A stretch of DNA of 5,988 nt from a virus. Taxonomy: Duplodnaviria > Heunggongvirae > Uroviricota > Caudoviricetes. The notes beneath the pieces are model-generated. The model worked only from the letters and a program-made list of their open reading frames with translations. It was not told the origin of the DNA and did not search any database. The stretch covers positions 1 to 5,988 of IMG/VR virus record IMGVR_UViG_2534681774_000011. The stretch is one strand, 5' to 3'. Positions 1 through 5,988 of the stretch are shown here, piece by piece; within the stretch, counting starts at the first letter, position 1; each line of letters starts with the position of its first letter. The translations under genes were made by a program, and so were the position numbers.

Positions 1-1
1 C

Positions 2-154
2 GCATCACGCGTCGCGCAAATCATGCACATCAATATGCTGCATGAGCGTAGCTGCGAACTTTCAAACCTCTATTCATCCGCTGTTTTCAGCTATCTGGCG
101 GATGATCTGCGCGAGCTTCAGCAGCTCATCCAGCAGCAAAACAAACTCCATTAA
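2..154 (+). CDS. 3' end of an upstream gene entering from beyond the window (hypothetical protein, C-terminus ...LADDLRELQQLIQQQNKLH)
   Basis: Reading frame +2 is open from the window edge to TAA at 152-154 and translates to a protein-like sequence (ASRVAQIMHINMLHERSCELSNLYSSAVFSYLADDLRELQQLIQQQNKLH). It is co-oriented with the downstream operon. The competing +3 frame ORF (42-230) is serine-rich low complexity. Frame choice is unresolved without a homology search. Confidence 0.35.
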   Translation, partial: ASRVAQIMHINMLHERSCELSNLYSSAVFSYLADDLRELQQLIQQQNKLH

Positions 155-226
155 TTCCTGTTCCGGGCCTTTCCTGCACCTTGCGGCGGGAGGCCTTCGC
201 ACATCTGTAACAAGAGGATTGCCGCA

Positions 227-592
227 ATGATTCTCGCCAACGACTTTCTTGAATACCTGCTCAACACAGAACGTGATCTTGCCGCTCGCGTGCGTGAACG
301 TTATGACATGTACCTGAAATCCCTGCCTGTACCGCAGCTCGCTGACGGAAAGATTGTTATTGATGGTCGCTACATGATTGACAGCCACGAGGGAAATTAC
401 AGGCTTTACCGCATTGAAGGTGGCACCCCGTCCGTTATTGGCATTTACCAGCGCCCATCCTCTGCAATCGTCGATGTGATTGCCGACAGCATCCGCATCA
501 CACATCGCCATGCCGACACAGAAGACACCGTGCTGGAAATTCAGCGGCTGGCTACAGTCTGCCGCGACACCCTGAATGGCATAACGAAGTAA
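227..592 (+). CDS. hypothetical small protein of the early/replication operon, 121 aa, function unknown
   Basis: ATG at 227 preceded by AGAGGA about 13 nt upstream. Stop TAA 590-592 lies 6 nt before the next ATG (599), giving tight operon spacing with the gpA-like gene. The translation has no recognisable motif. The antisense ORF 74-1063 is judged spurious. Confidence 0.6.
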   Translation: MILANDFLEYLLNTERDLAARVRERYDMYLKSLPVPQLADGKIVIDGRYMIDSHEGNYRLYRIEGGTPSVIGIYQRPSSAIVDVIADSIRITHRHADTEDTVLEIQRLATVCRDTLNGITK

Positions 593-598
593 ATCACT

Positions 599-1060
599 AT
601 GACGGCAGAGTACATCAGGGACTGGCAGCAACCGCGCCACGCAGTGGGGCGTGAAGGAACGGGGATCCCCGCTCCTGAATCCGCGCTTTCCTCCTGGCTG
701 GATGCCTACCGGGCAGAGAACGAGCGCTGCCAGGAAATGGCTGATGCGGCGTTCTCCGCCACGCCGCTGGGCAACCTGATTAATAAAAGCCTGGACGCAC
801 AGGAAAAACAGGACAAAACCATCACACTGGCAGGAGACGCCAGAAAGCAGGCACGCGGCGCGGTGGATGAAGCCATGGCCTCGCTGCGCCTGCTGCCATC
901 CTATCTGCGCGATCCGCTTATTCGCCACCTCTCCTTCCTGCGCAAAAAACAGGAATCGACCGCCAGAAAGGCAAAAAGAGCTGGCAGGCTGAACGCTACG
1001 CGCGCGGAACCCTGCGCAAAATATTCGAACGTCTGGACCGCACCGACGGGCGCTGGCTGA
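599..1060 (+). CDS. probable N-terminal segment of the gpA-like replication initiator, in frame +2 (out of frame with the main ORF); alternatively a separate small gene
   Basis: ATG 599 follows the previous stop by 6 nt. The translation is protein-like up to about residue 125 (...LRLLPSYLRDPLIRHLSFLRKKQESTARKAK) and then turns low-complexity (RAGRLNATRAEPCAKYSNVWTAPTGAG). Exactly there, frame +1 becomes protein-like and continues into the HUH initiator ORF. Frame +1 is open from 871 to 1105 without any ATG/GTG/TTG. Confidence 0.5.
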   Translation: MTAEYIRDWQQPRHAVGREGTGIPAPESALSSWLDAYRAENERCQEMADAAFSATPLGNLINKSLDAQEKQDKTITLAGDARKQARGAVDEAMASLRLLPSYLRDPLIRHLSFLRKKQESTARKAKRAGRLNATRAEPCAKYSNVWTAPTGAG

Positions 1061-1104
1061 CACCGGGTTATCGCTCCCTTGCCGGACGCGAACGCCTGGA
1101 TGAT

Positions 1105-3420
1105 TTGCTTTACCTGCCGCAGCTCAACAAGCACCAGATACAGACGCTGGCCACCATGACGGCGGCGATGTTCAGCAGCACCTTCGAAACACTCTGCGAT
1201 GGCTTTGGTGCCAGAGATGGCGAACTGACCATGGATGTAACGCTGAAGGCGTATCGGATGCTGGCCCGTATCGCATTACGCCTGCACATCATGCCGCCAC
1301 ATTACGACGCACTGACAACAGACAAAGACCGGAGGAACGATCCGGACACGGAACTGTTACCGGGCGCAATCCTTCGCCTGACCTGTGCGGAATGGTGGAA
1401 ACGCAAACTGTGGCTGTTACGTTGCGAGTGGAGAGAAGAACAACTCCGCGCCGCCTGTCTGGTTTCCAGAAAAACATCACCCTATCTGAGCCAGGACGCG
1501 TTAAGCGAGTTTCGCGCACAGCGCGAGAAAACACGCGATTTCCTGAAAAGTTTCATGCTGGAAAATGAAGACGGGTTCACGATTGATCTCGAGACAGTGT
1601 ATTACGCGGGAGTAAGTAACCCGGTTCACCGTAAGGCAGAAATGATGGCCACCATGAAGGGACTGGAACTTCTGGCCGAAGCCCGTGGCGACAGAGCGGT
1701 GTTTCTGACTGTCACCTGCCCGTCAAAATACCACGCAACAACGGAGAACGGTCATCCGAACCCCAAATGGAACGGGGCCACCATGCGCGACTCCAGCGAT
1801 TACCTGGTTAACACGTTTTTTGCGGCGGTCCGCAAGAAACTGAACCGCGACGGCCTGCGCTGGTATGGCATCCGCACGGTGGAGCCTCACCATGACGGAA
1901 CCGTGCACTGGCATATGATGGTCTTTGCCCATCCGGAAGAAATCGACACCATTGTGTCCCACACCCGCGATATTGCCATTCAGGAAGATCGTCACGAGCT
2001 GGGCGATGATATTACTCCGCGCTTTAAGGCGGAGTATGTAGACGGCTCAAAAGGCACGCCAACCAGCTACATCGCCACCTACATCGGAAAGAACCTGGAC
2101 AGCCGCGCCGTGGATGGCATCGACCCGAAAACGGGCAAGCCACGCGTTGACCACGAAACAGGAAAATCAATGGCCGAGAGCGTGGAGCGCGCCATCGGCT
2201 GGGCGCGCCTTCACCGGGTCCGCCAGTTCCAGTTCTTTGGCATCCCCTCCCGTCAGGTGTGGCGTGAACTCCGCCGCCTTGCCAGCCAGATGGCACGCAA
2301 CCCGGAAGGCCCGCAACGGCTGAAGGATGACGCAATGGATGCGGTTCTTGCTGCCGCTGATGCCGGATGTTTTGCCACCTACATAGAGAAACAGGGCGGC
2401 GTACTTGTTCCACGCAAAGACTACCTGATTCGCACCGCCTACGACCTCGCCGATGAGCTGAACGATTACGGCGAACAGAGCGTACAGATTTACGGGATCT
2501 GGTCACCACTCATCGGGGAATCCTCCCGTGTGTGCACGCATCCGGATAACTGGAAGCTGGTAAGACGCAAACCGGAAGCGGAAGACAGCGCCCGCGAAAA
2601 TGGTTTTGACCTTCAGGGCGGCCCTGCCGCCCCTTGGACTCGTGGCAATAACTGTCCCCGTGTACAGGAAACGGACAACAACGGGACAGAACAGTCGGAA
2701 GAACGGCCAGCACCGTGGCCGCAGCTCCCTGACGGCGTTGAAGTGAACGAATGGATGCGCTCACTGAAACGGCACGAACGCCGGGCGCTGATGCGTTCGC
2801 TTCGTGACAAACAGGCAAAAAACAGCAGTGATGAAATGCAGAGCTGGACACAGAGCCGCAAACAGCAGCGGCCTTTGCCTGATAACCACGAATTACTCGC
2901 TAAAGAATGGCGGAAGTCTGCCGAATCTCTCGGCCTGCATATCGGTGAACAGCAGATGCAGCACCTGTTACGGGGCGGCAGTCTGTACGTTGACGGCAGC
3001 ATCATTGCACCGCAGGGATTTGAAATTGTACGCAAACCGGATACCCGCCCGGACAGTCGAATCACGCAGCTCTGGCAGCACCTGAGCCGTAATCACGGCG
3101 TAAGCAGCACGGAGATCCGCCATAACCCGGTCGCCAGCTATCTGGCACAGCTGGGGGCATCAGACCCCGAAGCCGCCGCACGCCTGGCATCCGCACTTCA
3201 GCAGGATCAGAACACCATGAAAACACCCGTTACCGTGCTTTCTGACATGCTGCGCGCCATCCGCGACGCAGAGCACGCACAGAGAATCAGTGAAACCACT
3301 GAACGCGCCAGCCGCAAAGCAGACCTGCTGCAGGGTGGCCTGACCAGTGGAAACAAAAAACAGACAGAAACGGGATCCACAAATCCCGTAAATGAGCAAA
3401 AAACGCGCCGCGATATATGA
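1105..3420 (+). CDS. phage P2 gpA-family rolling-circle replication initiation endonuclease (HUH nickase); major in-frame portion, likely N-terminally incomplete as an ORF
   Basis: 771-codon ORF. Contains the HUH-type metal-binding motif VEPHHDGTVHWHMMVF (nt about 1885-1930) and paired catalytic tyrosines Y-IAT-Y-IGKN (TAC 2068-2070 and 2080-2082), characteristic of P2 A-type initiators. The ORF-track start at 1105 is TTG with no convincing SD. Coding-like sequence continues upstream in the same frame to the stop at 868-870. Confidence 0.85.
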   Translation: MLYLPQLNKHQIQTLATMTAAMFSSTFETLCDGFGARDGELTMDVTLKAYRMLARIALRLHIMPPHYDALTTDKDRRNDPDTELLPGAILRLTCAEWWKRKLWLLRCEWREEQLRAACLVSRKTSPYLSQDALSEFRAQREKTRDFLKSFMLENEDGFTIDLETVYYAGVSNPVHRKAEMMATMKGLELLAEARGDRAVFLTVTCPSKYHATTENGHPNPKWNGATMRDSSDYLVNTFFAAVRKKLNRDGLRWYGIRTVEPHHDGTVHWHMMVFAHPEEIDTIVSHTRDIAIQEDRHELGDDITPRFKAEYVDGSKGTPTSYIATYIGKNLDSRAVDGIDPKTGKPRVDHETGKSMAESVERAIGWARLHRVRQFQFFGIPSRQVWRELRRLASQMARNPEGPQRLKDDAMDAVLAAADAGCFATYIEKQGGVLVPRKDYLIRTAYDLADELNDYGEQSVQIYGIWSPLIGESSRVCTHPDNWKLVRRKPEAEDSARENGFDLQGGPAAPWTRGNNCPRVQETDNNGTEQSEERPAPWPQLPDGVEVNEWMRSLKRHERRALMRSLRDKQAKNSSDEMQSWTQSRKQQRPLPDNHELLAKEWRKSAESLGLHIGEQQMQHLLRGGSLYVDGSIIAPQGFEIVRKPDTRPDSRITQLWQHLSRNHGVSSTEIRHNPVASYLAQLGASDPEAAARLASALQQDQNTMKTPVTVLSDMLRAIRDAEHAQRISETTERASRKADLLQGGLTSGNKKQTETGSTNPVNEQKTRRDI
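3368..3392. repeat. copy 1 of a 25-bp repeat containing a 7-bp-arm palindrome (AAACGGGAT-N6-ATCCCGTAAA); candidate centromere/operator or origin element
   Basis: aaACGGGATccacaaATCCCGTaaa. Arms ACGGGAT and ATCCCGT are perfect reverse complements separated by 6 nt. It lies inside the last 50 nt of the gpA-like ORF. Confidence 0.55.
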
Positions 3421-3496
3421 AGCGCGCACAAAACAGGCAAAAACGGGATTTCAGAATCCCGTAAACGATTAATTAATCAACATAAGGAAAAGCGAC
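3421..3496 (+). promoter_or_regulatory. putative promoter/operator region of the parM-parR operon
   Basis: AT-rich 76-bp intergenic stretch (..cgattaattaatcaacataaggaaaagcgac) with SD AAGGA at 3484-3488 and palindrome copy 2 overlapping the likely promoter. In known ParMRC loci the ParR-bound repeats flank the par promoter. No precise -35/-10 could be assigned with confidence. Confidence 0.35.
3441..3465. repeat. copy 2 of the same 25-bp palindrome-containing repeat, in the intergenic region upstream of parM
   Basis: aaACGGGATttcagaATCCCGTaaa. Arms and flanks are identical to copy 1 and only the 6-nt spacer differs. It is 73 bp downstream of copy 1 and about 30 bp upstream of the parM ribosome-binding site. 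Confidence 0.55.
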
Positions 3497-4456
3497 ATGA
3501 AAATTTGTATCGACGACGGCTCCACCAACATCAAGCTGGCATGGACTGAGAACGGCGAACGCCGCAACGCCATCAGCCCGAACAGCTTCAAGTCGGAATG
3601 GTCTGCGCCGTTCGGTGGCACGCATCCCGCGAACTACATGCTTGATGGCGTGCGCTATGGCTTTGATCCGGTCAGCGATCGCTTTGTCCAGACGACCGAC
3701 ACGCAATACCAGTACAGCGATGTGAATGTAATCGCCATTCACCACGCGCTGGTCAAATCAGGCATCACACCACAGGAGGTGGATGTGGTTGTCACCCTGC
3801 CACTGAGCGAGTATTTCGACACAAACGCACAGCCGGACATGGCCAACATCAACCGCAAAAAAGCGAACGTCATGCGCCCGGTGGAGTACCAGAACGGTGA
3901 GGCATTCACTATCCGTAACGTGCGGGTTATGCCTGAATCCATTCCGGCAGGCTTTAAGGCACTGGCTGACATGAGTCCGTTTGAATCCCTGCTGATTGTG
4001 GATTTGGGCGGAACCACGCTGGATGTGGCAAAGGTTCAGGGACAACTGGCAGGTATCAGCCAGGTGTTTTGCGATCCACACGTAGGTGTTTCACTGATGG
4101 CCGATGCCGTGCTGTCGGTGATGGCCACTAACGGTATGCGCACCAGTCACCACATCGCCAATACCATTATTGAACATCGCCATGATGAAGCCTGGCTGCG
4201 CCAGCACATCCACAATGACGCGCATTACGCCAGCCTGATGGCGGTTATTCGTGAAAAGGAAGAAACACTGAAACAACGCGTGATCCGCGCGCTGGCGGGT
4301 TTTTCGGGTTACGGGCGGGTGATGGTTGTCGGTGGCGGGGCGGAGATTGTGGCACCCGCTATCCGCGAAGCCTGCGGAGTTAATGCGACTTTCATCGCGG
4401 ACGGGGTGCCACAGTTTGCTCTGGTTAATGGGCTGTACGCAATGGACAAGGAGTAA
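3497..4456 (+). CDS. parM: ParM/StbA-family actin-like segregation ATPase (type II partition)
   Basis: 319 aa. The N-terminus MKICIDDGSTNIKLAW...ISPNSFKSEW...YQYSDVNVIAIHHAL...VDVVVTLPL closely parallels plasmid R1 ParM as recalled (MLVFIDDGSTNIKLQW...ISPNSFKREW...WQYSDVNVVAVHHAL...). Length matches ParM (about 320 aa). Actin-fold phosphate motifs DDGSTN and VDLGGTT are present. SD AAGGA lies 8 nt upstream of ATG 3497. Confidence 0.9.
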   Translation: MKICIDDGSTNIKLAWTENGERRNAISPNSFKSEWSAPFGGTHPANYMLDGVRYGFDPVSDRFVQTTDTQYQYSDVNVIAIHHALVKSGITPQEVDVVVTLPLSEYFDTNAQPDMANINRKKANVMRPVEYQNGEAFTIRNVRVMPESIPAGFKALADMSPFESLLIVDLGGTTLDVAKVQGQLAGISQVFCDPHVGVSLMADAVLSVMATNGMRTSHHIANTIIEHRHDEAWLRQHIHNDAHYASLMAVIREKEETLKQRVIRALAGFSGYGRVMVVGGGAEIVAPAIREACGVNATFIADGVPQFALVNGLYAMDKE

Positions 4457-4460
4457 GCCA

Positions 4461-4772
4461 ATGACGACACCAACCAGACGGATAAGTTTCTATCTGAAGC
4501 CCGCCGCCGTCAAGAACGAAGGCGAAGCATGCGCCTGGCTGGACAGCCTTACACCAGAAGCCCGCAAAAGTGGTCAACGCGTGGCTTTTCTGGCCGGGCT
4601 GGCACTACTGAAAATGAATCCGGCAGAGGCTTACCGACTGGCTGCATGGGCTGATGATGAGGCGTTATCAGTGACACAAACCAGGACAGAACGCCCCGCG
4701 TCACAGCCAGTATCAGCCGCACAGATAACCAGTCAGATGGCCGGAAATATCCGGGCGTTATTTCCCGAATAA
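4461..4772 (+). CDS. parR: ParR/StbB-like centromere-binding adaptor of the type II partition system
   Basis: 104 aa from ATG 4461, with SD AAGGAG at 4448-4453, 4 nt after the parM stop. The N-terminal region RRISFYLKPAAV...LDSLTPEARKSGQRVAFLAGLALL resembles R1 ParR as recalled (RRTIAFKLNPDV...LDSIPQGERSRLNRAALTAGLALY). The ORF-track start at 4326 is an upstream in-frame extension overlapping parM and is not used. Confidence 0.75.
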   Translation: MTTPTRRISFYLKPAAVKNEGEACAWLDSLTPEARKSGQRVAFLAGLALLKMNPAEAYRLAAWADDEALSVTQTRTERPASQPVSAAQITSQMAGNIRALFPE

Positions 4773-4777
4773 CACAA

Positions 4778-4801
4778 CATCAGGGCGCATCCGCCCTGAT
4801 G
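4778..4801 (+). terminator. perfect 10-bp-stem/4-nt-loop GC-rich hairpin immediately after parR; possible terminator or module-boundary structure (no U-tract)
   Basis: CATCAGGGCG-catc-CGCCCTGATG begins 6 nt after the parR stop. It is followed by ACTTTAACCC rather than a T-run, so it is not a canonical intrinsic terminator. Composition shifts to lower GC downstream. Confidence 0.3.
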
Positions 4802-4835
4802 ACTTTAACCCGGGAGCATAAACAAGGGGGACACA

Positions 4836-5168
4836 ATGCAACACATTGACAGAGAAAAAGCGCAGCGACTGATTGAGCGGATGGAAGCGCTGGCGAAAGA
4901 AGAAAATGTCAACATCCAAAAAATAGCTGAATGTGGCCAGATAGTTCTTCGTCGTGAAAAAGACCTCAAACAACTGATGTCTGGCGAAACCAGCAAAACA
5001 TGGACTTCAGGTGAGGAGACGATTTATTGCAGCTTCTGCAATAAATCCCAGTACGAAGTCACAAAGGTGATTGCTGGACCGTCTGTTTACATCTGCAATG
5101 AGTGCGTGGATTTGTGCAATGAAATTATCAGGAGAGAAGTGACAGACAAAAAGGGAAAAAACGCATGA
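4836..5168 (+). CDS. small protein with a C-terminal ClpX-type C4 zinc-binding domain (zf-C4_ClpX-like), standalone and lacking an AAA+ module
   Basis: 110 aa. SD GGGGGA lies 5-6 nt before ATG 4836. The C-terminus ...[38 protein letters not shown] nearly matches the ClpX N-domain as recalled ([39 protein letters not shown]), with the four Zn-ligand cysteines CSFC...CNEC. The N-terminal 70 aa are predicted helical and charged. Confidence 0.8.
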
Positions 5169-5500
5169 ACAGAAAACAAAAACAAGAGTTGAAATACTTC
5201 TTACGTAAAGAAATTGCCAGGCTTGAAGATGCAGAATCACAATCATCAGAAATTCCGTTCGGAATGGATATCAACGACGCCCGTATACTCCAGGCATACC
5301 GCATAGCTCAGGCTGCACTACAGGCAAAACCGTCAGATGGACTGGTTAGAGCAGTACGTTTCTATGAACTGGTAAAGCGTGAGAATCCGCCAGTCGAAAC
5401 CGGAGCATGGAAAGACGCTGTTGACTGGGTGCTCAAAGAGGCTTGCCATGTTGTAAATATTGGTATCAAGGGAGGGGGATATGGCAACCAACAACCGTAA
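5165..5500 (+). CDS. hypothetical protein, 111 aa, translationally coupled to the ClpX-ZBD-like gene
   Basis: ATG 5165 overlaps the upstream TGA (5166-5168) in an ATGA arrangement. The translation is protein-like and no motif was recognised. Confidence 0.65.
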
Positions 5501-5675
5501 AGCAAAGATTCTGTTAGTTCGCAGAAACGATCCAGGCGTATGGCAGTGGGTGAGACTCAGCAACCGACGAATTGGGTTGATGAAATATTACGGGATGATG
5601 GATTGCGGTTTTTGCAAAAAGCCCAGCGCGGCGCAAAACCGCTGGAAAAACCACTTTCGCATTAAAGGAGAGTGA
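5481..5675 (+). CDS. hypothetical small basic protein, 64 aa
   Basis: ATG 5481 is preceded by a strong SD AAGGGAGGGGG (5468-5478) and overlaps the 3' end of the preceding ORF by 20 nt. The protein is lysine/arginine-rich ([23 protein letters not shown]...). The ORF-track start at 5460 is rejected in favour of the SD-backed ATG. Confidence 0.5.
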   Translation: MATNNRKAKILLVRRNDPGVWQWVRLSNRRIGLMKYYGMMDCGFCKKPSAAQNRWKNHFRIKGE

Positions 5676-5676
5676 G

Positions 5677-5895
5677 GTGCCTACACTATTCAGGAAAAAC
5701 TATCCGCGAAAGAGTAGAGCAATAGAATTTCTGTTTCTCATTCTGTTTATCGTGTTGATGATACCGATATCCCCGCTAATTTTTATCTGGGCAATCGGGA
5801 AAATAATTGAGCCAGTTATTGAATTGTATAACGACGTGGTATGGGCGTCGTTCAACACATTGCACAATAAAATTAATCCGTATAAGGAAAACTGA
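5677..5895 (+). CDS. hypothetical small membrane protein, 72 aa, with one long hydrophobic helix
   Basis: GTG 5677 lies 1 nt after the upstream TGA, with SD AAAGGAG (5664-5670) 6 nt upstream. The hydrophobic segment AIEFLFLILFIVLMIPISPLIFIWAIG is flanked by basic residues. The region is markedly AT-rich. The antisense ORF 5700-5969 is considered spurious. Confidence 0.5.
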   Translation: MPTLFRKNYPRKSRAIEFLFLILFIVLMIPISPLIFIWAIGKIIEPVIELYNDVVWASFNTLHNKINPYKEN

Positions 5896-5896
5896 T

Positions 5897-5988
5897 ATGG
5901 CAACGTTGACAAAAAAAGAACAGGCATGGTTGAACGAATTACAGGACGTTCTTGATCGCTGTCCATCACCGAAAAAAATTGGTTTTTA
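5897..5988 (+). CDS. 5' end of a further gene running off the window (MATLTKKEQAWLNELQDVLDRCPSPKKIGF...), function unknown
   Basis: ATG 5897 lies 1 nt after the preceding TGA (5893-5895) with SD AAGGA (5884-5888). The frame is open to the window edge. Only 30 codons are visible. Confidence 0.4.
   Translation, partial: MATLTKKEQAWLNELQDVLDRCPSPKKIGF

Follow-up and report, generated by a model that had tools for sequence, protein, structure and literature searches.

A parM-parR pair in the replication block of P88-like P2-type phages as a candidate type II partition module

Introduction

P2-type phages are textbook integrating phages that replicate as monomeric circles. Why, then, would such a phage keep an actin-type partition cassette, consisting of parM and parR, directly behind its rolling-circle replication gene gpA? 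This question is raised by a 5,988-nucleotide stretch of viral DNA (positions 1 to 5,988 of the IMG/VR record IMGVR_UViG_2534681774_000011, hereafter the window). An earlier reading of its sequence, here called the original prediction, had considered three answers: an extrachromosomal lifestyle stabilised by active partition, co-option of ParM filaments to position replicating phage DNA, and derivation of the window from a plasmid. The comparisons reported here suggest that parM and parR probably constitute a working type II partition module in the core early/replication block of P88-like P2-type phages, and they refute a plasmid source of this DNA.

ParM and ParR encoded directly downstream of gpA

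The listing of open reading frames (ORFs) placed all genes of the window in a single co-oriented block on the plus strand. As the original prediction had stated, ORFs for ParM and ParR directly follow a P2-type gpA gene (599..3420) on the same strand after a spacer of 76 bp (3421-3496), and both the exact coordinates and the profile matches bear this out. The parM gene (3497-4456) encodes an actin-like segregation ATPase of 319 amino acids, which over its full length matched Pfam StbA_N (E = 3.4e-82) and the ParM C-terminal domain (E = 1.3e-68), and which matched the solved structure of R1 ParM (1mwk) with E = 1.6e-92. The nucleotide-binding motifs DDGST, PES, DLGGTTLD, and GGGAE all aligned with those of R1 ParM, and the protein was 46.5% identical to the R1-like ParM of an IncF plasmid. 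It is an actin-fold ATPase with the phosphate-1, phosphate-2, and adenosine motifs of a type II ParM.

The parR gene (4461-4772) encodes a small ribbon-helix-helix adaptor of 103 amino acids located directly 3' of parM. The protein matched Pfam Plasmid_stab_B (E = 3.9e-24) and PHROG 2515, labelled 'partition protein' (E = 2e-58), and a comparison of its sequence with the PDB returned no match. The original prediction had let the identity of both proteins depend on a search with profile hidden Markov models, and the StbA_N, ParM C-terminal, and Plasmid_stab_B matches uphold it. The start of parR was re-assigned: the listed ORF (4326-4772), which opens with TTG, begins too early, and the real start is the ATG at 4461, located 4 nt past the parM stop and preceded by AAGGAG, in agreement with the RefSeq annotation of relatives.

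In ribbon-helix-helix proteins the N-terminal strand reads DNA, and the C-terminal region of R1 ParR binds ParM. The fixed or nearly fixed regions of the phage ParR were the N-terminal TRRISFYLKP strand, the two helices that follow it, and the last eight residues (NIxxxFPx), which read NIRALFPE in the window. N96, I97, F101, and P102 were invariant across 32 ParR alleles, and N96 aligned with the Asn of the C-terminal KKNAMKLIN of R1-like ParR. By this alignment the conserved tail is a candidate peptide for contact with the end of the ParM filament. The AlphaFold monomer, of low confidence (predicted local distance difference test score of 56), showed a disordered strand, helices at 20-29, 32-52, and 54-61, a disordered linker, and a helix at 86-100; this modelled secondary structure fits a ribbon-helix-helix/linker/tail layout. 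The protein is shorter than its plasmid counterparts (103 versus 116-147 amino acids), with ~20 residues fewer just after the ribbon-helix-helix domain. Within Escherichia, ParR was hypervariable and mosaic, with many alleles of 101-107 amino acids in clusters down to 41% identity, against 98-99% for ParM, and the variation was concentrated in the linker (residues 65-95).

The cassette belongs to P88-like prophages

The window was 97.1% identical in DNA sequence to Escherichia phage P88 over positions 1-5474 and 98.7% identical to prophages in E. coli chromosomes over its full length. It is the early/replication region of a P88-like, P2-like temperate prophage (Xuanwuvirus, Peduoviridae). The gene order in the chromosomal prophages was integrase, C/Cox switch, early genes, gpA, parM, parR, cargo, portal, terminase, capsid, and tail. 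The P2-type gpA, the C/Cox genes, the P2-type portal, terminase, capsid, and tail genes in P2 order, and a homologue of the P2 origin nick site together place the phage among the P2-like phages.

The 3' end of gpA plus parMR (3340-4800) was searched in 5426 complete E. coli genomes. The cassette was found in 1308 genomes (~24%), including O157:H7 EDL933 and ST131 strains, at 1454 chromosomal and 2 plasmid sites. At one of the two plasmid sites, in strain 455 (locus L101, NZ_CP183151.1, 1-34300), a complete P88-like prophage is apparently inserted in a 129-kb P1-like phage-plasmid, and the chromosome of this strain carries a second P88-like copy. In PLSDB the cassette was present in six 'plasmid' records, and among those listed several measured 0.2-1.4 Mb. 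Another listed record, pZ1323PEC0009-2, is a 34,461-bp circle that corresponds to a whole genome of the P88 type, in which integrase, C/Cox, gpA, parMR, and hok/gef are all present. A further occurrence came from a 226-kb contig labelled Vagococcus sp. WN89Y (L012, NZ_JBQPOM010000071.1), which encodes a 98%-identical ParM; as the genus is Gram-positive, this is most likely enterobacterial DNA contaminating the assembly.

Derivation of the window from a plasmid was rejected in view of its 97-99% identity to P88 and prophages and of the chromosomal location of 1454 of the 1456 cassette sites. The original prediction had asked whether the flanks hold integrase or plasmid backbone genes; in the E. 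coli chromosomes they encode an integrase, C/Cox, and P2-type head and tail proteins. Replication is represented by the P2-type gpA only, and integrase, C/Cox, and att-side genes flank the prophage, which sets the element apart from plasmids and phage-plasmids. Because the sites are overwhelmingly chromosomal and lie inside P2-type prophages, a plasmid lifestyle cannot be the normal state. Nevertheless, the phage may occasionally be extrachromosomal, since one 34.5-kb circular record holds it whole.

parM and parR as part of the phage backbone

Linkage was counted in the complete E. coli genomes, with the gpA type scored at a coverage of at least 80%. The gpA type was present in 1320 genomes and the cassette in 1278, a linkage of ~97%; EDL933, with its prophage CP-933T, carries the same gpA type. 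Similarity to the P88-like relatives ended at 4772-4798, just 3' of parR, and the genes after parR differed in strains 55989 and H10407, so that the variable cargo begins 3' of parR. In the P2 record, tin and old occupy the region after gene A. A GC-rich hairpin with a 10-bp stem (CATCAGGGCGCATCCGCCCTGATG, 4778..4801) stands at the end of the conserved gpA-parMR backbone and may mark a recombination boundary or a transcript end.

Selection was examined in 87 P88-like loci, comprising 80 IMG/VR contigs and reference loci. ParM was intact (319 amino acids) in all 87, and ParR (102-104 amino acids) in 84; one ParR was shortened to 79 amino acids and two ran off the locus end. For parM, the synonymous diversity (pS) was 0.080 and the nonsynonymous diversity (pN) 0.0044 among 67 haplotypes, giving a pN/pS of 0.055, a sign of strong purifying selection.

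The next-nearest ParMs in a collection of 5.8 billion proteins were 54-63% identical to that of the window. All four relatives whose context was examined (Hafnia, Plesiomonas, Serratia, and Enterobacter) lay between gpA and portal of a P2-like prophage, and an IMG/VR contig found with the Plesiomonas ParM had an ORF layout compatible with the same slot. When viral sequences were scanned with the ParMs of Hafnia and Plesiomonas, one scan yielded a single locus and the other none, and a ParM scan of genome contigs gave only three near-identical loci. Plasmid ParMs reached at most ~52-53% identity, and ParMs of ~50% identity were encoded on an integrative and conjugative element (ICE) and on an integrated plasmid. 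Placing ParM among actin-like segregation proteins, as had been suggested, gave a rough neighbour-joining tree, without support values, in which the six phage-context ParMs formed one clade beside the ParMs of IncI, IncL-M, and IncFIA plasmids. The simplest reading of these sequence relationships would be that the genes were acquired once, long ago, and have since been inherited within a clade of P2-like phages. The cassette is a conserved core part of this clade and not a chance capture.

Paired palindromes upstream of parM

The upstream repeats to which the original prediction had alluded were found as two 42-nt direct repeats 5' of parM (3354-3395 and 3427-3468), each holding a 20-bp palindrome of the form ACGGGAT-N6-ATCCCGT. 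The first palindrome (ACGGGATCCACAAATCCCGT, 3370-3389, with a GGG-N10-CCC core at 3372-3387) is candidate ParR site 1 and lies in the last 50 nt of gpA; the second (ACGGGATTTCAGAATCCCGT, 3443-3462, core 3445-3460) is candidate ParR site 2 and lies in the gpA-parM spacer. The two are 73 bp apart, about seven helical turns, and were the only copies in the whole P88 genome. GGG-N10-CCC occurred exactly twice in the 300 nt 5' of parM in E. coli (-125/-52), Hafnia (-128/-55), and Plesiomonas (-131/-59), with core spacings of 73, 73, and 72 bp in flanks that are otherwise dissimilar by eye. When the E. coli region was shuffled 200,000 times, only a fraction of 6e-5 of the shuffled sequences contained such a pair.

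Type II centromeres normally sit directly upstream of parM. The three lineages with the motif share the ParR strand TRR(I/V)SFYL, whereas the pair was absent, and other repeats were present instead, in the Serratia/Enterobacter-type phages (ParR NRKISFYL) and in plasmids (e.g. RRTIAFKL). In the Serratia/Enterobacter-type prophages (loci L017, 5887-5940, and L018, 5883-5950), an inverted repeat of 14-20 nt (…ATAGAAAAAT / ATTTTTCTAT…) with arms 26-28 nt apart precedes parM. Among 88 P88-like loci, the core was intact in 86 at site 1 and in 65 at site 2; the loops varied most, and a CCC>CCT variant of site 2 occurred, for example, in strain 55989. From this arrangement we infer that the paired palindromes are a candidate ParR-bound centromere.

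Another reading accepts the proteins as a partition pair and assigns the palindromes to RNA hairpins, minus-strand terminators, or a part of the origin, with the centromere elsewhere. It draws on the terminator-like score of both palindromes on the minus strand, on two common site 2 variants (first-base A>G and right-arm C>T) that keep G-U pairs in the plus-strand RNA stem, and on the position of site 1 within coding sequence. The origin role was rejected because the homologue of the P2 nick site, GCCGCCCCTTG^GACTCGTGGCAATAACTGT (2626..2655, plus strand, predicted cut between 2636 and 2637), lies ~0.75 kb upstream of the palindromes. This homologue shares 25 of 32 bases (counted by eye) with P2 around 29892, where the P2 record annotates the nick within gene A, 427 nt before the gene A end, and it sits where the gpA protein alignment predicts. 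A terminator or hairpin role is thought unlikely: in Hafnia and Plesiomonas the symmetry shrinks to stems of 3-4 bp round a 10-nt spacer, too weak for a hairpin, and yet the cores and the 72-73 bp spacing are kept, while no minus-strand gene ends here that would need termination. An R1-like locus, moreover, likewise has repeats directly upstream of parM. Taken as a whole, this reading is rather unlikely, and it is the one among the alternatives that survives best.

Expression and proposed mode of action

No terminator-like site was found in a scan of the plus strand between gpA and parM, and a sigma-70 promoter scan of 3200-5000 gave none at threshold. Read by eye, positions 3468..3496 (ATTAATTAATCAACATAAGGAAAAGCGAC, plus strand) comprise an A/T-rich element and a Shine-Dalgarno sequence that are conserved in the Hafnia and Plesiomonas relatives; the element ATTAATCAA...AAGGA precedes the parM ATG in the E. 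coli, Hafnia, and Plesiomonas lineages. Speculatively, a weak -10 in this segment could pair with a -35 TTCAGA (3450-3455) in the site 2 loop (TTCAGA-16-ATTAAT, 8/12 by eye). Given the gene layout and the lack of a plus-strand terminator after gpA, we infer that most parMR transcription is read-through within the early lytic operon that includes gpA, possibly supplemented by a weak ParR-controlled promoter. The EDL933 transcriptome/proteome paper and its supplements contained nothing on the expression of CP-933T parM.

The preferred explanation, a working partition module, can be set out as a series of steps, of which the first and last are suggested by the gene layout and the others by homology with R1 ParMRC. 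An early lytic promoter, active after infection or once the prophage has been derepressed and excised, would co-transcribe gpA, parM, and parR. ParR dimers would then bind both GGG-N10-CCC palindromes on circular phage DNA, and the conserved C-terminal tail of ParR would capture the ends of ParM-ATP filaments. Filament growth would separate the phage circles produced by gpA rolling-circle replication, which is predicted to start from the nick ~0.75 kb upstream. Two outcomes are conceivable. Replicating circles might be spread spatially, allowing efficient replication and packaging, as described for AlpAC of prophage CGP3; this outcome is offered tentatively. Alternatively, if the cell divides before integration or after excision, each daughter might receive a copy, as described for srpMRC of the SXT/R391 ICEs; this one is put forward with a little more reserve. 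The integrated prophage itself would not need the module.

The strong profile matches, the intact motifs, purifying selection, linkage to gpA, the cross-genus layout, the paired cores, and published precedents all support a partition module. Co-option for positioning replicating phage DNA, one of the options of the original prediction, is retained here as part of the best explanation on the strength of the precedents (PMC4489591, PMC4446434). Its proposal of an extrachromosomal lifestyle survives in reduced form: the same precedents favour a stabilised excised or replicating episome, and the chromosomal location of 1454 of the 1456 sites speaks against a stable plasmid or phage-plasmid state.

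Several points weigh against the proposed module and its centromere. The site 2 core is broken in about a quarter of the E. coli loci, and there are two sites where R1 parC has ten iterons. Conservation of site 1 could be partly protein-driven, because the site lies among the codons of gpA and is read in an identical Gly...Pro frame by E. coli and Plesiomonas. The three motif-bearing lineages are related by descent and are therefore not independent trials, and the ParM tree has no support values. With two sites only and ~20 residues absent from ParR, the protein and its DNA may be arranged differently in their complex, or the actual centromere might lie elsewhere. Finally, the proposed timing of expression is read from the layout, and a weak internal promoter may permit parMR expression in the lysogen.

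Possible persistence as a plasmid and other unlikely readings

A bolder proposal is that P88-like phages are facultative plasmid prophages, which also persist for many generations as low-copy circles maintained by parMR and hok/gef. In its fullest form, a P88-like circle would be carried for generations without integration, with low-level replication from the gpA origin, segregation by two-site ParMR, and policing by hok/gef. The circular pZ1323PEC0009-2 is a complete P88-like genome, a Hok/Gef gene adjoins ogr in P88, in pZ1323PEC0009-2, and in the pCREC455-3 copy, and the P1-like phage-plasmid D6 employs a ParM 48% identical to that of the window. These findings are outweighed by the almost exclusively chromosomal distribution in complete E. 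coli genomes and by the one plasmid site examined, which was an integrated prophage and not a free episome. Furthermore, integrase and att-side genes occur in all relatives, a theta-type plasmid replicon is lacking, gpA is a lytic rolling-circle initiator, and the one circular record could simply be an assembly of phage DNA that had been excised or was replicating. Both the general proposal and its fullest form are accordingly held to be improbable. If true, this dual lifestyle would make these the first integrating P2-type phages that are both integrated and episomal, and about a quarter of complete E. coli genomes would be concerned.

The cassette might also serve as an accessory function expressed in the lysogen, with resident ParR and ParM disturbing incoming related phages or plasmids through partition incompatibility or exclusion, like tin and old of P2. 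The cassette adjoins the variable cargo between gpA and portal, where P2 has tin and old; the diversification of ParR (to 41%, against 98-99% for ParM in E. coli) could reflect conflict; and the weak promoter-like element may overlap site 2. Nevertheless, the cassette accompanies gpA in ~97% of genomes and occupies the same position in distant genera, which marks it as backbone rather than cargo, and neither the DNA-reading strand of ParR nor the sites diversify, as avoidance of incompatibility would require. No PADLOC defence model matched ParM, ParR, or three of the four proteins encoded downstream, and no sigma-70 promoter reached the scan threshold. Such a function is thus highly unlikely. 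That the cassette is a decaying, functionless remnant of a captured plasmid locus can be dismissed: the frameshift of gpA in the window suggests that this copy may be defective, but the selection data contradict decay (ParM intact in 87/87, pN/pS 0.055), the layout is kept across genera at 54-63% identity, and no plasmid ParM is closer than ~52-53%.

Neighbouring features of the window

Upstream of gpA, positions 227-592 (plus strand) encode a 121-amino-acid protein of PHROG 3237. The gpA product is a P2-type rolling-circle replication endonuclease (Pfam Phage_GPA, E = 3e-130), which in the relatives is one coding sequence of 940 amino acids. Pairwise alignment revealed that one nucleotide near 955, present in all relatives, is missing from the window, which breaks gpA into the ORFs 599-1060 and 1105-3420; the site reads AGGAA-TCGAC in the window and AGGAAGTCGA in the relatives. 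Because of this frameshift, the prophage copy of the window may be replication-defective, or the missing base may reflect an error in sequencing. Despite the split gpA, parM and parR are undamaged.

Beyond parR, the first cargo gene (4836-5168, plus strand) encodes a protein of 110 amino acids that is made up almost entirely of a C4 zinc finger of the ClpX type (Pfam zf-C4_ClpX, E = 8e-18), without the ATPase domain; it could mimic or block the substrate- or adaptor-binding domain of the host ClpX. Two further small genes separate it from the gene of a DUF4014 protein (5677-5895, plus strand), which belongs to PHROG 1832, labelled 'released from the phage upon host infection'. The region 5490-5988, with the DUF4014 gene and its neighbours, was 88-95% identical to segments of Shiga toxin (Stx)-converting lambdoid phages (933W, VT2-Sakai) and of plasmids of roughly 50-145 kb from E. 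coli, Salmonella, and related bacteria. It is mosaic cargo common to unrelated mobile elements.

Prior knowledge and significance

GenBank and RefSeq already name these proteins ParM and 'plasmid partitioning/stability family protein', and PHROGs has families for both under the label 'partition protein'. In the paper on Citrobacter phage PhiSM the gene is entered among the 'fitness' cargo without further comment, the P88 paper makes no mention of parMR, and literature searches for a ParM function in P2-like phages or Xuanwuvirus found none. The type II kind of partition system and the existence of partition modules on integrative elements are therefore already known; what is new is a very widespread, functionally unstudied parMR pair whose candidate centromere is unusual and whose ParR is short. 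If P2-type replication were indeed coupled to an actin-like motor, a step of spatial organisation would be added to a classic system, and the need for partition in a brief episomal phase would extend beyond the SXT/R391 ICEs and CGP3. Two candidate palindromes served by a short ParR would also provide a useful minimal model of ParR-DNA assembly. As P88 and PhiSM are inducible and plaque-forming, the function is directly testable.

Comparison with known systems

The closest well-studied relative is the ParMRC system (parA/stb) of plasmids R1 and NR1, which has the same order of parM followed by parR and repeated DNA directly upstream of parM. The ParR proteins also have in common an N-terminal strand-helix-helix and a C-terminal xxNxxxL(F/I) tail. 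In contrast, R1-like parC consists of 11-bp direct iterons in two blocks flanking a strong promoter, while the window has two 20-bp palindromes 73 bp apart, with neither iteron blocks nor a sigma-70 promoter at threshold. The replicon served in R1 is a low-copy plasmid, and here it is an integrating P2-like phage. A Hok/Gef-family toxin gene was observed next to ogr in P88-like phages (L002, 34928-35068; L003, 1291-1431; L101, 32558-32698), so that with hok/gef and parMR these phages hold homologues of both R1 stability loci.

Two integrating elements provide functional precedents. The srpMRC locus of the SXT/R391 ICEs is a type II locus on an integrating element that acts on the transient excised circle; this circle replicates by rolling circle from an HUH-type enzyme, a toxin-antitoxin module lies alongside, and inheritance of the episome by both daughters was demonstrated (Carraro et al. 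2015, PMC4489591). The trio of gpA, parMR, and hok/gef in P88-like phages resembles this arrangement in function only. SXT/R391 is conjugative, unlike a tailed phage, and SrpM/SrpR were described as only distantly related to R1 ParMR (PMC4489591), whereas the pair in the window is a close relative of it. AlpA/AlpC of the Corynebacterium glutamicum prophage CGP3 pairs an actin-like protein that forms filaments with a DNA-binding adaptor encoded on the same transcript (Donovan et al. 2015, PMC4446434; PMC5539076). The adaptor binds the operon's own upstream sites; both proteins are induced early when the prophage excises, and circular phage DNA depends on them to replicate efficiently (PMC4446434). 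Here too the likeness, a filament former and adaptor encoded by an integrated prophage, is functional only; the host is Gram-positive, the prophage is large and cryptic, the adaptor gene comes first, and the actin-like protein is far from ParM.

Among temperate tailed phages, partition genes are also carried by the phage-plasmids P1 (ParAB), N15 (SopAB), and D6 (StbA-type ParM), and in D6 the ParM related to that of the window is likewise followed by a ParR-family gene. All three possess plasmid replicons and exist as plasmids, whereas P88-like phages have an integrase and are chromosomal. P88 itself encodes an annotated ParM (gp17) and an annotated partition protein (gp18). From P88, Citrobacter phage PhiSM, other Xuanwuvirus, and CP-933T, the window differs in its frameshifted gpA and in the cargo that follows parR.

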